Origin: Promethearchaeota archaeon
GTDB taxonomy: Archaea > Asgardarchaeota > Lokiarchaeia > Sigyniarchaeales > SOKP01
Direction of reading: 5' to 3'
NCBI GenBank assembly: GCA_048938005.1
Contig: JBHLMQ010000013.1
Coordinates: forward strand, 15,543 to 79,542
DNA: 64,000 nt
The notes under the pieces were generated by a model, which saw only the letters and a program-made list of their open reading frames with translations, did not search any database and was not told the DNA's origin. Both the position numbers and the translations under genes were made by a program. This document shows, piece after piece, positions 4,776 through 49,000 of the stretch. How positions within the stretch are numbered: position 1 is the first letter of the stretch; the number at the start of each line of letters is the position of its first letter.

Positions 4776-6482
4776 TTAAATATTAAATCTTTCTAATAAC
4801 CAATTTTTATCTAAGAGGGTTAAAAATGGTCCTAATCGTGGACCGCTTTTTTTACCTAAAATAATTTGATAAATTGCTTCAAATAGTTTTCTTGGAGAGA
4901 TATCTAAATCATTTTTTGCTATAGAAAAAATTTTATTTTGAATAAAATTTGCATCTAATTCATCATTTTCATTTAAGAACTCCCTTAATAAATGTATCCC
5001 TTTTAGTTGCTTTTTATCTAATTTCTTTATCGTATTTATAGTTATTTTATTTGGAATTGTGAAAATCTCTACTTTTCTTAGAATCTCTTCTTTAACTTTC
5101 GAATCTGTTTCGTTTTCTAATATTGTTTTTATTTCTTCAATCCAATTATTAGTTTTGGTTAAAAGTGCCTCAAATTCTTCTATACTAACTATATTATCAA
5201 AATTATGTTCTTCCATGTAGGATTTTGCTTTTTCATAGAGTATATCTAAATCTAAAATATTTTGAATTTGTGCGAAAAAAGTCAAAAGCTTCAAGGGTAA
5301 TTTTTTTGATTTTGTTTTAGGGAAATCATTTATCTGTGTTAATGGAAAAATGTATTTAAAAAATCTATTTTCTTCAGACTCATTTAATATTTCCAAATCA
5401 TAGTAAGAATTTTCCATTTTTTCATAATATTCATAATATTGAGGAAGTTCTTCAATCCTAAAAGCGATATGCTTCAGTGGAATTGTTTTTAAAATAATTG
5501 TCCTATAAATCTTTGGATCAGCCATTTCTAGATACTTTTTTGGTGTAAAAACAATACCTTTAGATGTTTTCATATCATAATTTCCAAGTCTTAACCATTC
5601 ATATGGAACTTTTACAGGGCCTTCATATCCATATATTTCTTTACATAATTCTAAACCAGTATCATATGCACCACCCTTTACGCTATGATCCTTGCCTGCA
5701 GGTTCACATGTCGTTTTATAAATTGCCCATTTTGCAGGCCAATCTATTCGCCAATTTAATTTTAACCTCCCGCTCCAAATTGATATTTTTCCGGAGTGTC
5801 CACATGCTTTACACGTATAGGTTACTTTTTCTTCGTCATAAAAATATTCTTTTGCTCTATTTGGTTGAATAGAACCATCTTTACTGACATGCTGGATTGA
5901 ATTGCATTCCTCACAAATAACCATAACTGGTAACCAGTTTTTTTGCATTTCTATAAATTTTGGCTTTAATTCTTCTTTTAGAGTAGGCAATATATATTTT
6001 TTCAAGATTTCCTTAATTTTTTTAGTATTTTCCAGAGCAATCTTTATTTTTTCTTGCATCTTTTTAGTTTTGTATAATTCATGTGACCAAATTACAACAA
6101 TTCTTATTCCAAAATCCGGAAATGATTCTATTAATTCATTACCAAAATGATGTGCATAACTTTCGCATCTACAATCATCGTAAGGGCATGGAATCATAGC
6201 AAATGGTTTTCCAAGATGTTTTTTCCGAAATTTTTCAGGAATATATGCTGGAAATCGCTTAGCTGCATCTAGACTATCAAAAAATAATAAATTATTAACA
6301 ATATCACCATTTTTTTCAAAAACCCTTCTTAAGGCATCGCAAATTATTATTTCTCGTAAAATTCCTAAATGGATATGACCCGATGGAGTCTTACCTGTAG
6401 AAAGTGTAATTTCATCAACTTTACGGGAGTAAATTTCTTCAACAATTTCTTCTATCCAATGAACTGGAAAATCTTCATTCAA
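4776..6482 (-). CDS. lysS: Lysyl-tRNA synthetase, class I
   Basis: HW..., TPSGHIHLG (HIGH), KLNWRIDWP, EPAGKDH, MKTSKG, GPRLGPF. Confidence 0.96.
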   Translation of the reverse strand: MNEDFPVHWIEEIVEEIYSRKVDEITLSTGKTPSGHIHLGILREIIICDALRRVFEKNGDIVNNLLFFDSLDAAKRFPAYIPEKFRKKHLGKPFAMIPCPYDDCRCESYAHHFGNELIESFPDFGIRIVVIWSHELYKTKKMQEKIKIALENTKKIKEILKKYILPTLKEELKPKFIEMQKNWLPVMVICEECNSIQHVSKDGSIQPNRAKEYFYDEEKVTYTCKACGHSGKISIWSGRLKLNWRIDWPAKWAIYKTTCEPAGKDHSVKGGAYDTGLELCKEIYGYEGPVKVPYEWLRLGNYDMKTSKGIVFTPKKYLEMADPKIYRTIILKTIPLKHIAFRIEELPQYYEYYEKMENSYYDLEILNESEENRFFKYIFPLTQINDFPKTKSKKLPLKLLTFFAQIQNILDLDILYEKAKSYMEEHNFDNIVSIEEFEALLTKTNNWIEEIKTILENETDSKVKEEILRKVEIFTIPNKITINTIKKLDKKQLKGIHLLREFLNENDELDANFIQNKIFSIAKNDLDISPRKLFEAIYQIILGKKSGPRLGPFLTLLDKNWLLERFNI

Positions 6483-14478: not shown

Positions 14479-14552
14479 GGGAGAGTGGCTTAGCCTGGTA
14501 TAGCGCACGGCTGATAACCGTGAGGTCGGGGGTTCGAAGCCCCCCTTTCCCA
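14479..14552 (+). tRNA. tRNA-Ile(GAT)
   Basis: Acceptor stem GGGAGAG/CTTTCCC, anticodon arm CACGG-ctGATaa-CCGTG, GTTCGAA T-loop; CCA not encoded. Confidence 0.95.
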
Positions 14553-18553: not shown

Positions 18554-18628
18554 CGGACCTAGCAGGATTCGAACCTGCGACTTTCGGATTAGAAGTCCGA
18601 CGCCCTATCCAGGCTAGGCTATAGGTCC
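18554..18628 (-). tRNA. tRNA-Arg(TCT)
   Basis: Reverse complement GGACCTA...TCGGA-ctTCTaa-TCCGA...GGTTCGAATCC...TAGGTCC-G. Confidence 0.95.
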
Positions 18629-41112: not shown

Positions 41113-42339
41113 ATGTTTAAATCAAAAAAGATTGAATCAAAATCGTATTTTAAGATAAATTATGTTTCTTTTGTATTCATTTATTTGGTATATTCATCCA
41201 TTTTTGTTTTTCTTAATAATTACTTCCCAATTCTTTTTTTTGATGTATTAAATATTAATCGATTTATGTTAGCGTTTATGCAATTTTTAGCTTACTCTCT
41301 TCTATTATTTCGCCCTATGTTTGCTGCAATAACAGATAAATATAGAATCAATGGTTATCAACGGAAATATTATATTATACTTTCAGGATATTCTTTAGCT
41401 CTTATCTATATCTTAATGGGTCTTTTTGTTACTAATATTTTTGTTTTTGGAGTTTTTTTATTCTTAATTTTTATTTCTAGTACAATGTTAGATGTTTCTA
41501 CAAAATCGTTAGTTATAGATATTTCACCAACTAATGAAATGAAAAAACGTTATATTTTTTATATGTTTGTTGGCGAAGCTTTAGGAAAATTTTTTCCTTT
41601 CTTTCTATATTTTCTTTTACTCAGGGACGTTTATTCATTAAGCTCTTGGGAAAATTTTATTATTTGTAGCTACCTTTTTTTAATACCTTTATTAAGCATC
41701 TTACCATTTATTAGGGAAATTAATCAAGATAAACCTCAAGTAATTGAAAACTCTGAAAATTTTATTATATCTAGTAGTAAAGATGTAAATTTTTCTCCAT
41801 TTTCTAAGCTTACTTTTATCTTATTTTGTGTTTTTGTATTTTTTGCTTTTAGTGACGGAATTTTTGCATATTCTTTTTTCCCATTTTTATTGAATAAATT
41901 TGGACCTGATAAATTTAACCTTTTTAACTTTTTTTTACTTTTTTACTTTCTATTAAGTATCTCGAGTAGTGCAATCGGGAGTTTTCTTATAAAAAGAACA
42001 GAACCTAAAAAAATTATATTAATTTTAATCCCAGTGGTAGGAATTATATATACGATGTATACCGTTGTCCCTTTTACATTTTTTACCATATTATATTTTA
42101 TTGGATGCTCTTTAGCGACAATTACTAATCTTAATATTTCAGCTTATATGATGAAATTTAAAAAAGGAAATAAATCCATCTACTTTCATCTTATTGCATC
42201 CTTCAGACAGCTTTCAATCTTCATTTTTCTTCCATTAGGAACATTACTTTCCAGCTTCATCACCACAGAATATCTTATTATCATTGGAGCTATTTTACTT
42301 AATGTATCTCTAATTCCTTTGATAATTATAAAACCTTGA
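41113..42339 (+). CDS. MFS transporter (AmpG/BT1-like)
   Basis: About 12 TM segments; RPMFAAITDKY...RK, LDVSTKSLVID. Confidence 0.8.
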   Translation: MFKSKKIESKSYFKINYVSFVFIYLVYSSIFVFLNNYFPILFFDVLNINRFMLAFMQFLAYSLLLFRPMFAAITDKYRINGYQRKYYIILSGYSLALIYILMGLFVTNIFVFGVFLFLIFISSTMLDVSTKSLVIDISPTNEMKKRYIFYMFVGEALGKFFPFFLYFLLLRDVYSLSSWENFIICSYLFLIPLLSILPFIREINQDKPQVIENSENFIISSSKDVNFSPFSKLTFILFCVFVFFAFSDGIFAYSFFPFLLNKFGPDKFNLFNFFLLFYFLLSISSSAIGSFLIKRTEPKKIILILIPVVGIIYTMYTVVPFTFFTILYFIGCSLATITNLNISAYMMKFKKGNKSIYFHLIASFRQLSIFIFLPLGTLLSSFITTEYLIIIGAILLNVSLIPLIIIKP

Positions 42340-42370
42340 CACTTATATCATTTTTTTAGAAATAAAAAGA

Positions 42371-44014
42371 TTAAGGATATATTTCTCCATGTTTCCAATA
42401 TTGAGGAATAAATAAATCAAAATCCTTTTCCCCATTTCTATACAAATGAGCAAATTTAAAATATCCTTCTCTCATAATCTTGAAATCACCTTTATCAAAG
42501 AAAGGTGTTTTGTTTTTTATTTGATCCGAAACATATTTTTTTACCCATGCATAATTCAAACTTAATGATTCAAGAAAGTCCAATTCTTTACTAGGTTTTA
42601 CTATCTTATTATAAACTCGATGATCATCGAGTGGTTTTCTCCACCACTTGTCATAGTAGATTTTACCTCCATACTTCACTTCACATTCATTATATATTAT
42701 ATTGGGGGGTATTGCTTTATAATACCTAATATCCATTATTATTTTGTATTGTTCGCTTAAAGATTTGCCACCAAATCTTTTTCCAATAAAAAAATCTCGA
42801 TTATCTTTTATAGTTTGTCGTGTTTCACTTGGAAGCCCGATAATTAAAAAAATCCAAATATTTGTATTTATTTCATTTGAAAATATTATTAGATCTTCCA
42901 TCTTTTTTATATATTTTTCATAATCAGCATCATTCTTGGAATTTAATTTATTTAAGTTTTTAAGCATCGAAATTGAGGCAGACTCAAATCCAAAATATGG
43001 TTCAATATCTAGATCTCTGTAATATAAAAGGTCCATTTTTGAACATACATCGACTCTATCATATACAATTATTTTATAAGGAAATCCTCTTTCACTATTT
43101 TTTAAGATTCTTAATTCTTTAAAAAAACTTTCTCTAACACTTTTTCTTGGGAAAAAAATCGGATCACTGATAGTAATCCCATTTGGATTGAGCCAATTGG
43201 TTTCTCTGATGATTTTTAATTCTTCAATACATTTATCAATCGCTCTCCATCTATAATTTTTGTGAAAAACTGGGTATTTTCCAGAAAGACAAAGTTTACA
43301 ATGAAAGACACAACCCCGCCCAAAATCAATATTTAATCTCAAATTTTTAAGTTTATCTTTATATCGCTTCATGAGGGAAAAATCGATGAGGGGTAAATCG
43401 TTTAAACAAGGAAAGAAGCCACCTTCTATGATATGGGGTTTCATTTTGTTTTTACGATCAATTTTCAGATTGTTATTTAGAAGGTGTTTGAGTAAGTTGA
43501 AAAAAGCCAATTCTCCTTCTCCTTTTACTAAATAATCAAACGGAATAACTTTTTCAGGGAATTTTTTAACAATAAATGAAGGTATTTTTTCATCGCGGAA
43601 CTCTTCTGGAAAGAATGTGGGGTGATAGCCTCCTACAGTGATTACACATTTAGGGTTTATTAGAGATTTTATTAGATACGCAATTAAAACTGAATTTAAG
43701 TATTCATAGGAAGAATAACATGAGAGAGCTATAATATTAAAAGCAAAATTATCATATAAATTAGAAAAGAAAGCCTCCAGTTCCCTTTTATATTCATCTA
43801 AATTTTTAAATTCAAATGATGGTAATCCTTCCAATCGTAAATCAATAAGAATTTCTTCAAATTCGAAGGGTATCTCTTCCTTTCTCGAATTTATATAATT
43901 AGAGATCCGTAAAAAGTAAGTATAAAATGCTTTATGAGAATGGACTAATTCTTGAGGAAAAAGATACATAATTCTGAATTTTTCTTTATTATTATATAAT
44001 CGTTCTATTTTCAT
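42371..44014 (-). CDS. Cobalamin-dependent radical SAM protein
   Basis: B12-binding domain (IALSCYSS, VGGYHPT, DYLVKGEGE), GRGCVFHCKLC, GFESAS, IIGLPSET. Confidence 0.9.
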   Translation of the reverse strand: MKIERLYNNKEKFRIMYLFPQELVHSHKAFYTYFLRISNYINSRKEEIPFEFEEILIDLRLEGLPSFEFKNLDEYKRELEAFFSNLYDNFAFNIIALSCYSSYEYLNSVLIAYLIKSLINPKCVITVGGYHPTFFPEEFRDEKIPSFIVKKFPEKVIPFDYLVKGEGELAFFNLLKHLLNNNLKIDRKNKMKPHIIEGGFFPCLNDLPLIDFSLMKRYKDKLKNLRLNIDFGRGCVFHCKLCLSGKYPVFHKNYRWRAIDKCIEELKIIRETNWLNPNGITISDPIFFPRKSVRESFFKELRILKNSERGFPYKIIVYDRVDVCSKMDLLYYRDLDIEPYFGFESASISMLKNLNKLNSKNDADYEKYIKKMEDLIIFSNEINTNIWIFLIIGLPSETRQTIKDNRDFFIGKRFGGKSLSEQYKIIMDIRYYKAIPPNIIYNECEVKYGGKIYYDKWWRKPLDDHRVYNKIVKPSKELDFLESLSLNYAWVKKYVSDQIKNKTPFFDKGDFKIMREGYFKFAHLYRNGEKDFDLFIPQYWKHGEIYP

Positions 44015-44314
44015 TCTTTCTTATTTTGTTATTTCTGGTTTGAGTAAAATTCGAATTTATTTTAATGTGTAATTTATTTTCTTTACTTTTCTTTTTAAAC
44101 AGCCATAATTTCCACTATTTAAATTATTTTCTTTAAAAATCTATTAATTAAACAAACGATTTATTAAAATAATCAAGATCAATAATAGGGAAAATGCTAA
44201 ATGAATTTACTGCTATTAGTGGTGGATTCTAAACAGAAATAAATGTTTGAAATTAAGAGCAGTTGAAAAATAAGAAAATAAAATAAGAGAATCTATAAAT
44301 GATTCTGAAGCCAA

Positions 44315-44344
44315 TTAACCTCCAATTTCTCCACTATATGGCAT
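44315..44344 (-). CDS. Candidate mini-peptide MPYSGEIGG
   Basis: ATG CCA TAT AGT GGA GAA ATT GGA GGT TAA; TTTAAAAA ends 21 nt upstream; T-rich tract downstream. Confidence 0.5.
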   Translation of the reverse strand: MPYSGEIGG

Positions 44345-44453
44345 ACTATGTATTCTTCATTCAAATTTTTAAAGTAAACCAAAAAAAATTACAAATAAAT
44401 TAAAAAATAGAAACATATCTTATCATAGAATAAAGAATTAAAAGTTATTTTAT

Positions 44454-44522
44454 ATATTAGGATATACTTTTTACGAAACTTTAGAGGATTTATCTAAGGG
44501 AAAAGAATTAAACCAAATATAA
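44454..44522 (+). pseudogene. Truncated duplicate of the 5' end of the 1211-aa gene
   Basis: ILGYTFYETLEDLSKGKELNQI* versus MLGYIVYETLEDLSRGKGLSQIQ. Confidence 0.8.
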
Positions 44523-44677
44523 AACATTAAGAATATCAAGATTGTTAATATGTAAATTTCTGGACGCGTCTGCTGCTATAAGTATTGGATTGTAAATAAA
44601 AGTAAACATTTGAATTTAAGAAAAGTTGAAAAATAAGAGAATAAAATAGGAGAATCCATAAATGATTCTAAACCTAA

Positions 44678-44707
44678 TTAACTACCTATTTCTCCAGTTA
44701 ATGGCAT
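44678..44707 (-). CDS. Candidate mini-peptide MPLTGEIGS
   Basis: ATG CCA TTA ACT GGA GAA ATA GGT AGT TAA; same start, stop and length as copy 1, with synonymous changes at Ile and Gly. Confidence 0.5.
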   Translation of the reverse strand: MPLTGEIGS

Positions 44708-44815
44708 ACCATATATTCTTCATTCAAATTTTTAAAGTAAACAAAAAAAAATTCCAAATAAATTAAAAAATATAAAAATATCTAATCATAAAATAAAGAA
44801 TTAAAAATTTTTTTT

Positions 44816-47800
44816 ATGTTAGGATACATTGTTTATGAAACTTTAGAAGATTTATCCAGAGGAAAAGGATTAAGCCAAATACAAAATGTTTTCAACATTT
44901 TAAATTCTGAATTAGCTGATTATCTTAAACTACAGCCCCTATATCAAGAGATAATTATAAAATTACTTAATAAAGGAGGTTTTAAAAAAGGAGCAAACGT
45001 ATCCATCCTTGATTTTGGAGTTAAGAGAATTGTTAAAAATAATAAATTAATGTTAGAAATAAATGAAAATTATAAAAAATTTTTACCCTTTATTTTGTTT
45101 AGAGAAGCATGTTATTCCTTCATTCCTAAAGACGTGAGTGACCTTGTTAAAATATGTATTAACCAAATTGTAGAAAATAATCTCATTAGATTATCAACCT
45201 CTAAAGATTGGAAGAAATTAATAAGAGATTCTTTAGTAGACAGGATGTTTATTCACTCTCAGTTCGATAAATTACAAAAATTTTTCAATATTGAGGCAAA
45301 AGAACCGTTAGAGAGCTCAACTCAATTTTTTTTTAATGAAATGAGAGAAAATAGATTATTGAGCCAAAATGATAATATTGATAAGTTTTATGATATAATT
45401 TATGAAAGATTTACCTATAAAACATCTAGATCTTTATTTAATTCAGATATTATAGAAACATTAAGAATAATGATCCACCTTTTTTACAAAACCAAATCAT
45501 ATTTAAATTTATCAGATTATCAATCCCTATTCAAAAAATTCAAGGAAAATAAACAGATAGATACAGATTTAAGTTTGAGAAAATTTGCCGAAAATATGCA
45601 ATGGATTAATAAATGTTCTTCCATTGCGCCTTCCTATGATATTGATTATGGGGTTATTGACCTTTGTGTAATTATAGGTATTATAAAATTTAATCCTCTT
45701 TTAGAGAAAAATAAAATCAAAATTTTAATTGAAGAATGGCCATTTTACCATTCTCTAAAATTCTCAGAAAATAGTCTCGCAACAGAAGTTTTTTTATATT
45801 TTAATGTTCCTAGAATATACTTAAATGATTTATTAAATTATTTTGGTAGATTAGAAGAATATGGTTATATAATTAGAAAGGAATTATATCAGGAATTTAA
45901 AAAAACCTCTCCTATAAATCTAAATTATTTTAAAGATATCGCCAATGTAAGAAGAATTATTTATCCCAATAATATTAGTTATGAGGAAAAGTATGAGATT
46001 GAATCTAACATAAAATATTCTACGATTTCTCACCCTCCTCCCCTATCCATTTTTGATTTCATAATTCTAGATCGTGTAAGAAATCTATCAGTTACGGGTC
46101 TAACCTTTGATAAAAGAATAGAAACGCTAAATTCTATAAAAGAGGATGTCGAAAATGAATTACGAAAACAAAGAGTTTTTAATGAAGAGTTTAAGGTTAG
46201 TTTAGATAAAATATTAAATTCATCTAAATTAAAACACCAATTCTTACAGTTTATAGAGAAAAATAAGAACAAAGGATTTTTATATTCATATTTTCAACTG
46301 AGCCATACTTTAAATTACATAGATTTAATTAGAAACATTTTAAATGATCATCCTGAAATAACAAATAGCCATCTACTCCAGACATTCCTAAATACAAAAG
46401 CAATCTCTCAAATTATCGAAGAACAATTACTTATTCGAAATAAAAATATAAAAAAAAGTATATTTCGAAATTTTATTTCGCTGTATTTTCAATCCATAAG
46501 CTTATTTAAAGAAAAAATAGGAAAAATTCAAGCCTTTTACAATGTATTAGATGCTTGTAATAACCTTAAAATTTTAGATTTGATTAATATAAAAAAAATC
46601 GTAAGTAATTCCAATTTAGTTGAAGAAATTTATCGAAAAAGAGAAGAAAGATATGAGGATATATTCAAATCCGTAACCTTATATAAAATCACAAACGAAA
46701 AGATTGAATCCACCATTGAAACGTTTCTAAATTGTAATCCTCCTTTATTGAACCCCCTTTTAATAAATACAATAATAACAAGCACATTTGCTAAATATTA
46801 TCCCGAATTAATATTAAAAGACACACCTAAGGCTTATGATGGCCTAAAGAAACTGAAATTATATTTTCCAAGAATATTTATCTTTAAAACAACAGAATTA
46901 TATACTAAAAGAAATTTTATTTGTATTGAAACCTACTTTATAAATATAAAAGAAAAAGGATTATTTTTATCTATTTTATGTACTTATTTTAAAGATTCGA
47001 TCATTAAAATAACACGTTATTTTTGGAGGGGGGTTAGGAGAAGATGGAAACTTGATCCAAAAGAGTTTTATGATTATGAAAATCAACAATTTTTCTATTC
47101 AAAAGACTTATTTGAACAACTCCAAATATATACTCCGAAAATTCTTGGAGAAAAATTAGAGTTGCCTAAATATCCATTGAATGATAATGTACCAGAAATT
47201 TTTTGGTCAGGAAAAGAGAATATGGAAAACTTGGTAGCTACTGTAAAGAACAGAATCTCGCGTCAAGATATTGATTTTAACGTACAAAAATTAGGTAATT
47301 TGCTAGAATTTATAAGAAATTTAGAAACAAATTTATTAGATCGTACTAAATTTATTGATGTTAAAGTTAAAAAATATTTTAAGAGATATGTAAATTCGAT
47401 AAAATTTATTCCAGCTTTTCAGAAATTTGGCTTATCCCCGTATTGTTTATATTTTCGTCCATTTGATTATAAATATGTCGATTTCAGGCTTCTGTTTATA
47501 AATACTTTTAGGGTTATTAAATATCCTGCTTGTGTTGAGACTAACACACCAATTTTTTGTGAGTTTATATTTCCCTTCAGGACTCCTAATAAAACTTATT
47601 TAAATTGGCTTGTAAAATCAAAAAAAAATGTTTTTGAGTATTGTCTTTTCTATAAAAAGAAATTTTATGAGGTTATTCACTTTAATCGCAATTTAACAAA
47701 AGAAGGTTGGAGCTATTCATCAATTAGATTTAAATCATACATGCAAGATGTGTTATTCAATCCTTCATATAATCCAAAGATTTCCAAAATAAGAGAATTT

Positions 47801-48451
47801 GATATGAATGAAAAGTATGACCTTAATATTTATGGACCAAAAACTCAAGAATATGAATCTTTAACTCAATTATATAATACCCATGCTATCGATATCAAAT
47901 CATACTTAGGAACAAAAAGATATTCCATTATTAACAATATTACTGATCTCCTTCAAAAGAAATTAATTTTCCCTTATCTATCATTAAAAAATTTAGATTT
48001 TCAAGAGAAAATTTCAATAATTTTACCCAATATTAAACAGGATTTAAATGATAAGATTATAAGGATATTTAGTTTTTTCAATATGTGTCGAATATATGAA
48101 ATCGAAGGGGAATTCTTTATTTATGGTTTTGAAGATGTGAAATCATTTGAAAACGGGCTTTTAATCGAAATTTGGCTGCCTAAATGCGAATTGGATGAAT
48201 TTATTGAAGTTTTTGATTTGTTATTTCAATATTTTAATGTGAAACATCGCCTAATCTTAAGTGATATAGTTAATGGAAATACCTTACTCAAGTCAATTTA
48301 CGGAAATTTAGACTTTCTAAATTCATATAACCCACTATTAAATCTAAAATGGAATGAAAAAGATAAGATCTGGATGAATCATAAGCTTTTTAATGAAAAA
48401 TTCGAACCAATTTACCCAGATTTAATTCCTAACAAAATAAATCAAGTTTAA
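44816..48451 (+). CDS. Large hypothetical protein (1211 aa), possibly with repeated wHTH/AsnC(RAM)-like modules
   Basis: Long soluble ORF; segments such as PSYDIDYGVIDL, FIPAFQKFGL and ITDLLQKKLIFPYL resemble Lrp/AsnC linker and HTH parts (weak). Confidence 0.75.
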   Translation: MLGYIVYETLEDLSRGKGLSQIQNVFNILNSELADYLKLQPLYQEIIIKLLNKGGFKKGANVSILDFGVKRIVKNNKLMLEINENYKKFLPFILFREACYSFIPKDVSDLVKICINQIVENNLIRLSTSKDWKKLIRDSLVDRMFIHSQFDKLQKFFNIEAKEPLESSTQFFFNEMRENRLLSQNDNIDKFYDIIYERFTYKTSRSLFNSDIIETLRIMIHLFYKTKSYLNLSDYQSLFKKFKENKQIDTDLSLRKFAENMQWINKCSSIAPSYDIDYGVIDLCVIIGIIKFNPLLEKNKIKILIEEWPFYHSLKFSENSLATEVFLYFNVPRIYLNDLLNYFGRLEEYGYIIRKELYQEFKKTSPINLNYFKDIANVRRIIYPNNISYEEKYEIESNIKYSTISHPPPLSIFDFIILDRVRNLSVTGLTFDKRIETLNSIKEDVENELRKQRVFNEEFKVSLDKILNSSKLKHQFLQFIEKNKNKGFLYSYFQLSHTLNYIDLIRNILNDHPEITNSHLLQTFLNTKAISQIIEEQLLIRNKNIKKSIFRNFISLYFQSISLFKEKIGKIQAFYNVLDACNNLKILDLINIKKIVSNSNLVEEIYRKREERYEDIFKSVTLYKITNEKIESTIETFLNCNPPLLNPLLINTIITSTFAKYYPELILKDTPKAYDGLKKLKLYFPRIFIFKTTELYTKRNFICIETYFINIKEKGLFLSILCTYFKDSIIKITRYFWRGVRRRWKLDPKEFYDYENQQFFYSKDLFEQLQIYTPKILGEKLELPKYPLNDNVPEIFWSGKENMENLVATVKNRISRQDIDFNVQKLGNLLEFIRNLETNLLDRTKFIDVKVKKYFKRYVNSIKFIPAFQKFGLSPYCLYFRPFDYKYVDFRLLFINTFRVIKYPACVETNTPIFCEFIFPFRTPNKTYLNWLVKSKKNVFEYCLFYKKKFYEVIHFNRNLTKEGWSYSSIRFKSYMQDVLFNPSYNPKISKIREFDMNEKYDLNIYGPKTQEYESLTQLYNTHAIDIKSYLGTKRYSIINNITDLLQKKLIFPYLSLKNLDFQEKISIILPNIKQDLNDKIIRIFSFFNMCRIYEIEGEFFIYGFEDVKSFENGLLIEIWLPKCELDEFIEVFDLLFQYFNVKHRLILSDIVNGNTLLKSIYGNLDFLNSYNPLLNLKWNEKDKIWMNHKLFNEKFEPIYPDLIPNKINQV

Positions 48452-48514: not shown

Positions 48515-49000
48515 ATGGGAAAAAATAAAAAAGAAGAAGAACCAACCAAAAAAATCAAAGTTGAGGATAAGGAAGGGCTAACGCTATCTTATGATAAGGG
48601 AGAATTAAATGACCATTTCCCGCACTTGATAAAGGAAATGTCTGAAAAAGAGAAATCAATTAAGATAAAATCTATTGAAAATGAAGTTGAGCAAATAAAT
48701 GATGAGAAACCACAGGAATCCAAGAATTTATATCCAAATGAATTATATTCTCCTAGAGCGATTGATTTTATTAGAAGATGTGCAAAAGAAGAGGAGGCAA
48801 TTGATATTTTGGATTATTTATTGAAAAGGAATGAAATTTCTCAAGAAGATTATAATTCTTACAGAAATATCATTTCAAAAGAAGGAGGTTTGAAGAAACT
48901 TATTAATGAAAGCGGTGGACCAAAAAAACCGGGCTACTATTTGGAAAAATATTATTTTAAGGACAATAAAAATCAAAAATTAAATAGTAATGAGGATTAG
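48515..49000 (+). CDS. DUF2095 family protein
   Basis: FPHLIKE...P.AIDFIRRC...EEAIDILDYL.KR.EI...GYY. Confidence 0.8.
   Translation: MGKNKKEEEPTKKIKVEDKEGLTLSYDKGELNDHFPHLIKEMSEKEKSIKIKSIENEVEQINDEKPQESKNLYPNELYSPRAIDFIRRCAKEEEAIDILDYLLKRNEISQEDYNSYRNIISKEGGLKKLINESGGPKKPGYYLEKYYFKDNKNQKLNSNED

Follow-up and report, generated by a model that had tools for sequence, protein, structure and literature searches.

A conserved family of 8–14-codon mini-genes paired with a large protein of predicted peptidase-like fold in Lokiarchaeia-type Asgard archaea

From bacteria, communication by peptides and natural products built from ribosomal peptides are both well documented. In the RRNPP and Rgg-SHP systems of Firmicutes, a short peptide gene lies beside, and is often divergent from, the gene of a cytoplasmic receptor-regulator, with many paralogous pairs per genome; receptors of the RRNPP type belong to the TPR proteins, and the corresponding peptides arise by cleavage of longer, secreted pro-peptides. 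Very short open reading frames (ORFs) also serve as leader peptides in attenuators, known from the drug-inducible cat, cmlA and erm genes. The biarylitides, finally, come from clusters that contain a precursor gene, named bytA, plus one P450. Their precursor is reported to be a 5-aa peptide encoded by an 18-bp gene (PMC13417212). We describe here a locus within a 64,000-nucleotide stretch of a Promethearchaeota archaeon (contig JBHLMQ010000013.1; hereafter the window), in which two 9-codon mini-ORFs are followed by the gene of a radical S-adenosylmethionine (SAM) enzyme and a convergent major facilitator superfamily (MFS) transporter gene, and are divergent from a 1211-aa ORF, called BIG. As in the biarylitides, a leaderless ribosomal peptide gene of a few codons stands beside its partner and is missed by gene callers (PMC13417212, PMC12951456). 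Unlike in the biarylitides, there is no P450 here and the constant partner is a 1200-aa protein without a recognisable catalytic site; the peptides, of 8–14 aa, lack the aromatic cross-link motif, belong to archaeal hosts and are known from genes alone.

The window has a G+C content of about 26%. The first-pass annotation of this stretch had pointed out the two minus-strand mini-ORFs, the duplication that carries them, a box 21 nt before each ATG, a T-rich tract behind each stop, the order of the genes and a 5′ remnant of the BIG gene, and all of these are present as it described them (Table 1). The direct repeat (44163-44451 and 44526-44814) is 82% identical over 289 nt, with a spacing of 363/362 nt, and continues at 81% identity (44441-44524 and 44803-44886). 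Its dead remnant (44454-44524) corresponds to the first ~24 codons of the BIG gene; in it, ATA stands in place of ATG, and a TAA is present in frame. Misassembly does not account for the duplication, since contigs from three other runs of two studies (X3 record 12, covering 44316-44707; X2 record 5; X4 record 21) span the copy junction or the stretch between the ORFs without mismatch. A variant strain shows six listed differences in 44286-44315. Sense codons and stem are free of them, three affect the loop, and one exchanges TAA for TAG. The two mini-ORFs share 24 of 30 nt (80%), versus 82% for the whole repeat; the duplication alone thus shows no selection, and evidence for it must come from other genomes. 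The caveat, raised from the outset, that two such short ORFs could have been conserved passively therefore stands within the window and fails across other genomes, where the ORF is constrained.

Indeed, the mini-ORF is kept upstream of the radical SAM gene in all four genomes that have an orthologue of this enzyme (G019, G015, G014 and G002). G019 encodes MPYSGEIGG three times, twice in tandem and once beyond two inserted genes; its three ORFs are identical at 30/30 nt, while 7/45 nt of the upstream flank differ between copies 1 and 3. The G014 peptide, MPVGEAGN, results from an in-frame 3-nt deletion, and that of G015, (M)PLSGEPNA, begins with GTG behind GAGGAGGT, located in a stretch of 37 nt inserted between TATA box and start codon. 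G002 carries MPRGGEIGS and a degenerate second copy, and no BIG gene was found in its genome. A covariance model (R1), built from eight mini-ORF copies, gave matches in 27 of 135 genomes that belong to the taxonomic family (14/53 in one genus and 12/42 in another), counts that are not independent because these genomes are related to one another, and in none of 19 genomes from the order's other families. In all 23 further R1 matches inspected, an intact ORF of 8–14 codons occupies the aligned place. The consensus of the family is M-P-x-x-G-E/D-x-x-P/G, with peptides such as MPSTGEGGG, MPYSGETGA, MPYGGENGG, MPHGGEIVP and MPHAGETLP, and also MPFQGETQP, MPHAGDAVP, MPYEEGDL and MPSGTGDG. Five genomes hold related ORFs in other contexts (MPHAGDAVP, MPHGGEVIP, MPHGGDAVP and MPNTGEQGAKRMNK; model E 0.003-0.009). 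Tandem copies, each with its own promoter and terminator, occur in the window genome (G000), G019, G100, G003 and G091. The G091 locus (L077:1501-1989) has three different mini-ORFs within 500 nt and in two orientations (MPHGGEVMPEDL, MPRAGETLL and MPHGGEVCP), placed between BIG and MFS. The mini-ORFs make up an undescribed and unannotated family of 8–14-codon genes in one Promethearchaeia (Lokiarchaeia-type Asgard) family.

Comparison of 16 distinct 9-codon sequences reveals a coding signature. Variation at Pro2 (CCA/CCT), Gly5 (GGA/GGT/GGG), Glu/Asp6 (GAA/GAG/GAC) and the stop codon (TAA/TAG) is confined to third positions, and the entropy of the Gly5 and Glu6 codons is 0, 0 and 0.87 bits at positions 1, 2 and 3, respectively. 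Across the family alignment, the best-conserved stretches are the TATA box with its GTTTAC, which is the top block, and ATGCCA, GGAGAA, TAA and the hairpin arms; conservation falls at codons 3-4 and 7-9. Such ORFs are also rare: only four MPxxG[E/D] ORFs of 8-9 aa exist on both strands of the whole 3.72-Mb genome, two of them being the window copies, which makes a chance occurrence unlikely. Presence in homologous loci and constraint at the codon level, two of the checks that the first-pass annotation had proposed, are thus both observed. On comparative sequence evidence, the mini-ORF is a conserved coding mini-gene under selection at the amino-acid level, and its conservation is not passive.

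The surroundings of the ORF are organized in a similarly regular manner. In the window, a TATA box that ends 21 nt before each ATG implies a leaderless mRNA, as had been proposed; elsewhere, versions led by a Shine-Dalgarno (SD) site exist as well. A motif test found GGAGG-, GAGGT- or GGTGA-type sites within 20 nt before the start in 21 of 31 instances; in the other 10, which have no SD motif, a TATA box is read ~22-25 nt before the ATG, and these are taken as leaderless. The hairpin begins 4-12 nt past the stop in both sequence classes, that of the window and the upstream-divergent one described below. Across 35 family copies, counted in an alignment that was itself fitted to the model, 92% of cells are paired and 5/6 pairs show double changes, a level reached by 0/500 shuffles, while slid controls give 26-59%. 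Copy 1 does not stand out by its folding energy (z -0.5), and that of copy 2 is lower (z -2.4). Each copy would accordingly read as an autonomous transcription unit, composed of a GTT(C/T)AC motif resembling a TFB-recognition element, a TATA box, a leaderless or SD-led ORF, a hairpin and a T-tract.

Could the element instead be non-coding, the short ORF within it being open by accident, and act as a small RNA or as a promoter/operator module that belongs to the BIG gene? The equal conservation of ORF and flanks within the window would fit this, as would the nearly palindromic TATA box, the predicted pairing of the ORF purine run with the T-tract, and the sequence conservation of the hairpin arms, which could also be a palindromic protein-binding site. 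It is contradicted, however, by SD sites gained at the correct spacing in most lineages, by in-frame indels, by the third-position-only variation and TAA/TAG exchange described above, and by other mini-ORF classes that keep the ORF length and the M-P start despite unrelated nucleotide sequence. Furthermore, no Rfam family reached its gathering score in the mini-ORF region (best mir-268, 26.9 bits versus a gathering score of 47; snoRNA matches all at E > 4). Collectively, these data make a non-coding element very improbable. In the window as a whole, only two tRNA genes (14479-14552 and 18554-18628) match Rfam at gathering score. Two further candidates were rejected: a C/D-box sRNA, read by eye in a 'TGAATGAAGA ... 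TCAGA' stretch, whose box-like bases are not kept in G014, and a longer frame reading through the TAA, open in copies 1 and 2, which is not coding, as it shifts in G019.

Concerning the neighbouring genes, BIG lies beside the element, in divergent orientation, in 19 of the 27 element-bearing genomes, and an MFS transporter of one subfamily is found nearby, in both orientations, in 19/27 as well, so that the proposed link to these two proteins is borne out. A radical SAM gene is adjacent in 5/27 (the window, G019, G014, G015 and G002), always co-oriented and with the mini-ORF upstream. The constant partners are thus BIG and one MFS subfamily, and the radical SAM enzyme is a clade-specific accessory, not a core component. 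The MFS gene is convergent on the mini-ORF in the window's genus and co-oriented downstream in a second genus, where the hairpin has a ~45-nt loop; MFS identity among cluster types is 27-40%. The window MFS matches PF07690 with 37.7 bits (gathering score 33.4) and displays 9 hydrophobic segments in a crude scan. In two genomes, G094 and G013, the neighbour of the element is CdhD.

The radical SAM enzyme of the window contains the CxxxCxxC motif (C236-x3-C240-x2-C243). Its Pfam matches are weak (PF02310, 24.5 bits versus a cut-off of 32.1; Radical_SAM, 16.6 versus 29.5), and 12 class-B-type subfamilies of NCBIfam match at E 6e-10 to 0.03, all far under their cut-offs. No sequence relative was found in the PDB, and PADLOC gave one weak match (PDC-M51A, 25.6 bits). 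Orthologues with 57-62% identity are present in 4/24 sampled genomes of the genus, the same four as above, along with one 35%-identical paralogue. In the 900 nt upstream of distant homologues from other genera (34-44% identity), no MP-type ORF is present. Between repeat unit 1 and the start of the radical SAM gene (44015-44160), G000 and G019 are closely similar by eye; the TATA-like boxes present there make it probable that this gene has its own promoter. In G019, two small genes (L027:4687-5079 and 5367-5813) are inserted between radical SAM and MFS; one of them, of 130 aa, has a match (E 1.3e-7) that is restricted to the C-terminal part of ThiF, and the third mini-ORF copy lies just past both.

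These linkages bear on the interpretation put forward by the first-pass annotation, a minimal cassette for a peptide made by ribosomes and then modified post-translationally (RiPP). The 9-mer would be a leaderless precursor, the radical SAM enzyme its maturase, acting for instance by C-methylation or cross-linking, and the MFS transporter an exporter, with BIG as scaffold, second tailoring enzyme or immunity/regulatory factor. A precursor-like gene is indeed co-oriented upstream of radical SAM in five genomes and in a distant paralogous cluster of G016 (BIG 42%, radical SAM 34% and MFS 27% identical), whose order is BIG, MPGYEDWPVM, radical SAM and convergent MFS. BIG homologues adjoin radical SAM homologues in 4/16 further loci (G077, G066a, G144 and G016) and in four orthologous ones (G000, G019, G015 and G014), so that a RiPP-like branch stays in consideration. 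RiPPs typically have precursors that are hypervariable and present in several copies, and a leaderless minimal precursor has its precedent in the biarylitides (PMC13417212). On the other hand, radical SAM is missing beside 22/27 elements, which argues against a core maturase, and no orthologue of it was found in most genomes that keep the peptide, BIG and MFS. Neither an RRE/PqqD-like nor a SPASM domain was detected in the enzyme with Pfam and NCBIfam, the peptide has no leader and measures 8-9 aa in total, a terminator-like hairpin, a T-tract and ~300 nt separate the ORF from the enzyme gene, and no residue conserved throughout the peptides is an obvious radical SAM target. What holds of the proposed cassette is therefore a real and conserved mini-ORF linked to MFS and BIG, whereas radical SAM as a core member, a leader and an RRE do not; as a whole, it appears rather unlikely. 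In G077, the AT-rich spacer that separates a BIG paralogue from a radical SAM homologue of 41% identity contains a G+C-rich 14-codon ORF, MSIGYAWSGGYGTP (L036:1237-1281), followed by a T-tract; this ORF may represent a further mini-ORF class tied to radical SAM.

The hairpin so close to the stop raises the alternative of a cis-acting leader peptide, in which translation of the mini-ORF would govern the hairpin and T-tract and hence read-through into radical SAM (here) or MFS (in other genomes), as in bacterial drug- or metabolite-sensing leaders. Leader-peptide attenuators likewise have a mini-ORF of fewer than 10 codons with a hairpin at once after it, sometimes upstream of an MFS gene. In both sequence classes, a terminating ribosome would cover the start of the hairpin; in the window, the downstream radical SAM gene has the same orientation as the mini-ORF, and so does, in genus g22 and in 12/40 distant loci, an MFS gene located 100-250 nt downstream. 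But unlike in such attenuators, each mini-ORF, including every tandem copy, has a full promoter and terminator of its own, the whole unit is duplicated, and often no co-oriented gene follows: the next gene is convergent in G079, G080, G022, G004 and G093, leaving nothing downstream for cis control, and the third G019 copy has no co-oriented downstream gene either. A linkage that survives inversion of the MFS gene argues, together with this G019 copy, against a purely cis-acting leader. Conservation acts at the amino-acid level, at positions 2, 5 and 6, without runs of regulatory codons, and hairpin-dependent attenuation is, to our knowledge, not established for archaea, which also counts against this explanation. 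We therefore consider it quite improbable.

BIG is widespread in the same group of organisms. Orthologues are present in 21/24 sampled genomes of the genus, and its N-terminal 400 residues were found in 109/135 family genomes, in all 13 genera and with up to four paralogues, and in 0/16 sampled genomes of other families. A library of 1.84 billion proteins yielded 273 representatives at E <= 1e-3, most of them of ~1200 aa. No match to Pfam, NCBIfam, PADLOC or PDB sequences was obtained, alone or as a profile, and the ESM Atlas gave weak leads (0.84) to archaeal helix-turn-helix (HTH) proteins. The fold was examined in an AlphaFold2 model of residues 1-1200, computed from 57 sequences (pLDDT 87.6, pTM 0.87); the N-terminal domain folded alone reached a pLDDT of 90.2. 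Structural comparison relied on an exhaustive VIA-align search with the full model and with the N-terminal domain alone; the AcrB rows given by Foldseek (TM 0.07) were discarded as spurious.

The best structural match of BIG is the siroheme decarboxylase NirDL, a fusion protein of Lrp/AsnC type (4czc_A, Z 13.6, 295 residues, model 210-774), and Lrp/AsnC chains (2p5v, 2e7w, 2cg4, 8q90 and 3i4p) match residues ~205-655 with Z 6.0-6.6. The predicted secondary structure comprises four units, each helical plus beta-alpha-beta-beta-alpha-beta. While the likeness to the Lrp/AsnC and NirDL/AhbAB proteins is thus structural, BIG differs from them by the lack of membership at the sequence level (no HTH_AsnC-type or AsnC_trans_reg match at E <= 1 for the query or 40 family members), by four units in one chain, by a 230-residue helical insert and by an N-terminal peptidase-like domain. 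With the full model, a block of zinc metallopeptidases matches residues 12-208. With the N-terminal domain alone, zincin-fold proteins fill ~45 of the 50 top rows, namely M1 aminopeptidases, thermolysin, M36, M3, DUF885, minigluzincins, SprT, BepA, Ste24, BlaR1, ACE and TAF2 chains (Z 8.5-6.9 to 3cia, 1z1w, 4m65, 4qhf and others, with the TFIID chains 6hqa_A and 5fur_I also present). Since the best Z, 8.5, lies within the range typical for models without a true match and is not decisive, the zincin assignment rests on the uniformity of this list. BIG residues ~12-208 would thus share their fold with the zincin metallopeptidases and their inactive relatives such as TAF2, but R-E-A-Y/C-x replaces the HExxH zinc site, its place being judged from the order of helices in the model and not from residue-level alignments. 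R96 and E97 are each kept in 55/57 members, and His occurs at either ligand position in 0/57. This replacement in all 57 aligned members makes peptidase activity unlikely. Collectively, the models, whose structural matches are of moderate strength, suggest that in BIG a peptidase-like domain devoid of its metal site is joined to four modules of the Lrp/AsnC kind, with a wHTH and a RAM/ACT-like part. Binding is a more probable function of BIG than hydrolysis, and DNA binding is possible.

Other classes of mini-ORF accompany the BIG paralogues. Ten distant BIG loci have no MPxxGE-type ORF upstream, and 3/10 have a different class downstream. The group of ~43% identity has its ORF downstream of BIG in the same orientation (MPGAHEGHPIM, present two times in G003, MPGYEDWPVM and MPASEGRP). 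Among 40 further loci of BIG paralogues, SD-led ORFs are found ~260-285 nt upstream on the divergent strand, encoding for example MPGTANTTP, MPGQHDVIP, MPGEHGIAP, MPNSGIIP, MPGCADATP and MPATCDTTP and followed by a hairpin type of their own, CTCCCGC...GCGGGAA. An MP-ORF starts 255-315 nt upstream in 12/40 loci versus 0.41 expected from the genome-wide rate, and one with an SD site in 11/40 versus 0.036 expected, within a range that was picked after the data had been seen. Inspection and a scan for SD plus hairpin added variants with other N-termini (MNFQGETVP, MIFGGETIPK, MNPGLAGGPPRY and MAPGCGNIIP). Members of the MFS subfamily lie within 1.6 kb in 22/40 of these distant loci. Paralogous pairs of BIG and mini-ORF with different peptides thus exist in the same family and, in G124 and G113, within one genome.

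Several features of these loci deserve mention in their own right. About 270 nt upstream of BIG in G129 (L153), in divergent orientation, a GAGGT site and a terminator hairpin accompany a mini-ORF-like frame, xPGNDAICPRY; this frame lacks ATG, GTG and TTG, and ATT stands at the expected start, so that it may have a non-canonical start or be a decayed copy. In G124, and also in G113, a 395-aa protein (L080:1639-2826) without Pfam match is convergent on a stand-alone MPHAGDAVP ORF. It contains HEGYPGHH, which we take to resemble a DUF885-type metallopeptidase motif; DUF885 structures are also among the fold matches of the BIG N-terminal domain. Downstream of several BIG paralogues (L137:5283-6737, L141:5286-6713, L132:5230-6711 and L145:5259-6713) lies a gene of the alpha type of ADP-forming acyl-CoA synthetases (CoA_binding plus Succ_CoA_lig), and a gene of like size and place is present in ~14/40 loci. 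These two neighbours, the synthetase gene and CdhD, could point to carbon and energy metabolism or be a matter of synteny only. Directly 3′ of BIG in the window (48515-49000), and also in G019, stands a gene of the archaeal, uncharacterised DUF2095 family.

The explanation that we favour, with moderate confidence, is that the mini-ORFs encode a translated family of functional peptides that work with a cognate BIG protein and the MFS transporter, radical SAM being accessory. Conservation, coding signature, gene linkage and modelled folds are its observed part. Both 30-nt ORFs would be genuine translated genes, with the peptide itself as product and not by-product. It would act in trans with its cognate neighbour BIG, presumably a cytoplasmic protein of ~1200 aa, which it would meet most simply in the zinc-less peptidase-like cleft, and the dedicated MFS transporter would carry the peptide or a derivative across the membrane. 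In the window's subclade, the presumed cobalamin-type radical SAM enzyme, inserted between mini-ORF and MFS, would probably modify the peptide. Through its 363-bp tandem duplication, which is among several that arose independently in the family, the genome would possess two expressed alleles.

A number of observations weigh against this explanation. Among them are points already given: the equal conservation of ORF and repeat in the window, the hairpin counts taken from a fitted alignment, the unremarkable folding energy of copy 1, the distance range chosen after the fact and the Z score of the zincin matches. In addition, about half of the 40 distant paralogue loci have no mini-ORF by the criteria used, and no BIG was seen beside the element in 8/27 genomes, at loci of which three are short or at a contig end. 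Foldseek gave no match at E <= 0.001 for either the full model or the N-terminal domain, and, NirDL being an enzyme, an Lrp-like fold is no proof of DNA binding. The four matching sequencing runs all consist of DNA contigs, and no RNA run containing the locus is listed. Finally, a free 8-9-mer could be short-lived in the cell.

How a peptide working with BIG and MFS would be used can be considered in the light of the RRNPP and Rgg-SHP systems. These share with our loci a small peptide gene beside a large cytoplasmic protein with HTH-type modules, diversified paralogous pairs and a transporter nearby. The differences are that here the 8-9-mer is encoded directly, without a signal sequence, that BIG combines a predicted pseudo-zincin with an Lrp/AsnC-like fold, no TPR family being found by Pfam in the query or family members, and that an MFS transporter is linked instead of an ATP-binding cassette (ABC) exporter or Opp importer. 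The nearest precedents are thus the biarylitides for gene size and RRNPP/Rgg-SHP for architecture, the defining features of each being absent here. The role of sensor that the first-pass annotation had given to BIG is a hypothesis compatible with the modelled pseudo-peptidase and Lrp/AsnC-like fold. A more specific version can be put forward only tentatively, and we hold it to be doubtful: Asgard peptide signalling, in which unprocessed peptides of 8-9 residues would be moved by MFS and read by a cognate BIG receptor-regulator through its dead peptidase cleft and four fused, Lrp-like DNA-binding modules. Paralogous pairs, with up to four BIG genes per genome, would then form separate channels, and radical SAM would edit the signal in some lineages. 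The system as a whole may serve signalling, regulation or biosynthesis.

Table 1. Positions of the mini-ORF units and the neighbouring genes in the window, and predicted domains of BIG
Feature	Position	Strand	Remarks
Mini-ORF copy 1	44315-44344	minus	9 codons + TAA, MPYSGEIGG, ATG-CCA-TAT-AGT-GGA-GAA-ATT-GGA-GGT-TAA; copy proximal to radical SAM gene
Mini-ORF copy 2	44678-44707	minus	9 codons + TAA, MPLTGEIGS, ATG-CCA-TTA-ACT-GGA-GAA-ATA-GGT-AGT-TAA; copy adjoining 1211-aa gene
TATA box TTTAAAAA of copy 1	44366-44373	minus	conserved GTTTAC in front; ends 21 nt before ATG
TATA box TTTAAAAA of copy 2	44729-44736	minus	same 21-nt spacing to ATG
Hairpin AGAATC-ATTTATA-GATTCT of copy 1	44288-44306	minus	starts 8 nt past stop
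Hairpin AGAATC-N7-GATTCT of copy 2	44651-44669	minus	starts 8 nt past stop
T-rich tract after hairpin of copy 1	44262-44287	minus	resembles archaeal terminator
T-rich tract after hairpin of copy 2	44625-44650	minus	counterpart of copy 1 tract
Tandem repeat unit 1	44163-44524	no strand	promoter region, mini-ORF, terminator, dead 5′ remnant of 1211-aa gene
Tandem repeat unit 2	44526-44886	no strand	extends into live start of 1211-aa gene
MFS transporter, 408 aa	41113-42339	plus	subfamily travelling with mini-ORF and BIG
Radical SAM enzyme, 547 aa	42371-44014	minus	convergent with MFS; divergent class-B-like, putative B12-binding domain
1211-aa ORF (BIG)	44816-48451	plus	divergent from mini-ORFs
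BIG zincin-peptidase-like domain	residues ~12-208, 44849-45439	plus	predicted fold; R96-E97 in place of HExxH
BIG NirDL/Lrp-AsnC-like double module	residues 210-774	plus	predicted; split by helical insert (230 residues)
BIG C-terminal part	residues 775-1200	plus	predicted; more helical and ferredoxin-like units

Among the literature matches listed, none describes for Asgard archaea a system of peptide communication or of ribosomal peptide products, such mini-genes or a BIG-type protein family. The present data reveal a gene family of 8–14 codons, invisible to gene callers and paired with a large protein family that is present in 109/135 genomes, and they indicate that ORFs of ~30 nt can be recognised by comparative genomics alone. 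If our explanation is true, it would provide a second, independent example of leaderless mini-genes. If the pairing with BIG is one of ligand and receptor or of substrate and enzyme, it would open a testable route into regulation or chemical ecology in the archaea that are most closely related to eukaryotes, in which the mini-ORF family may mark a peptide system.

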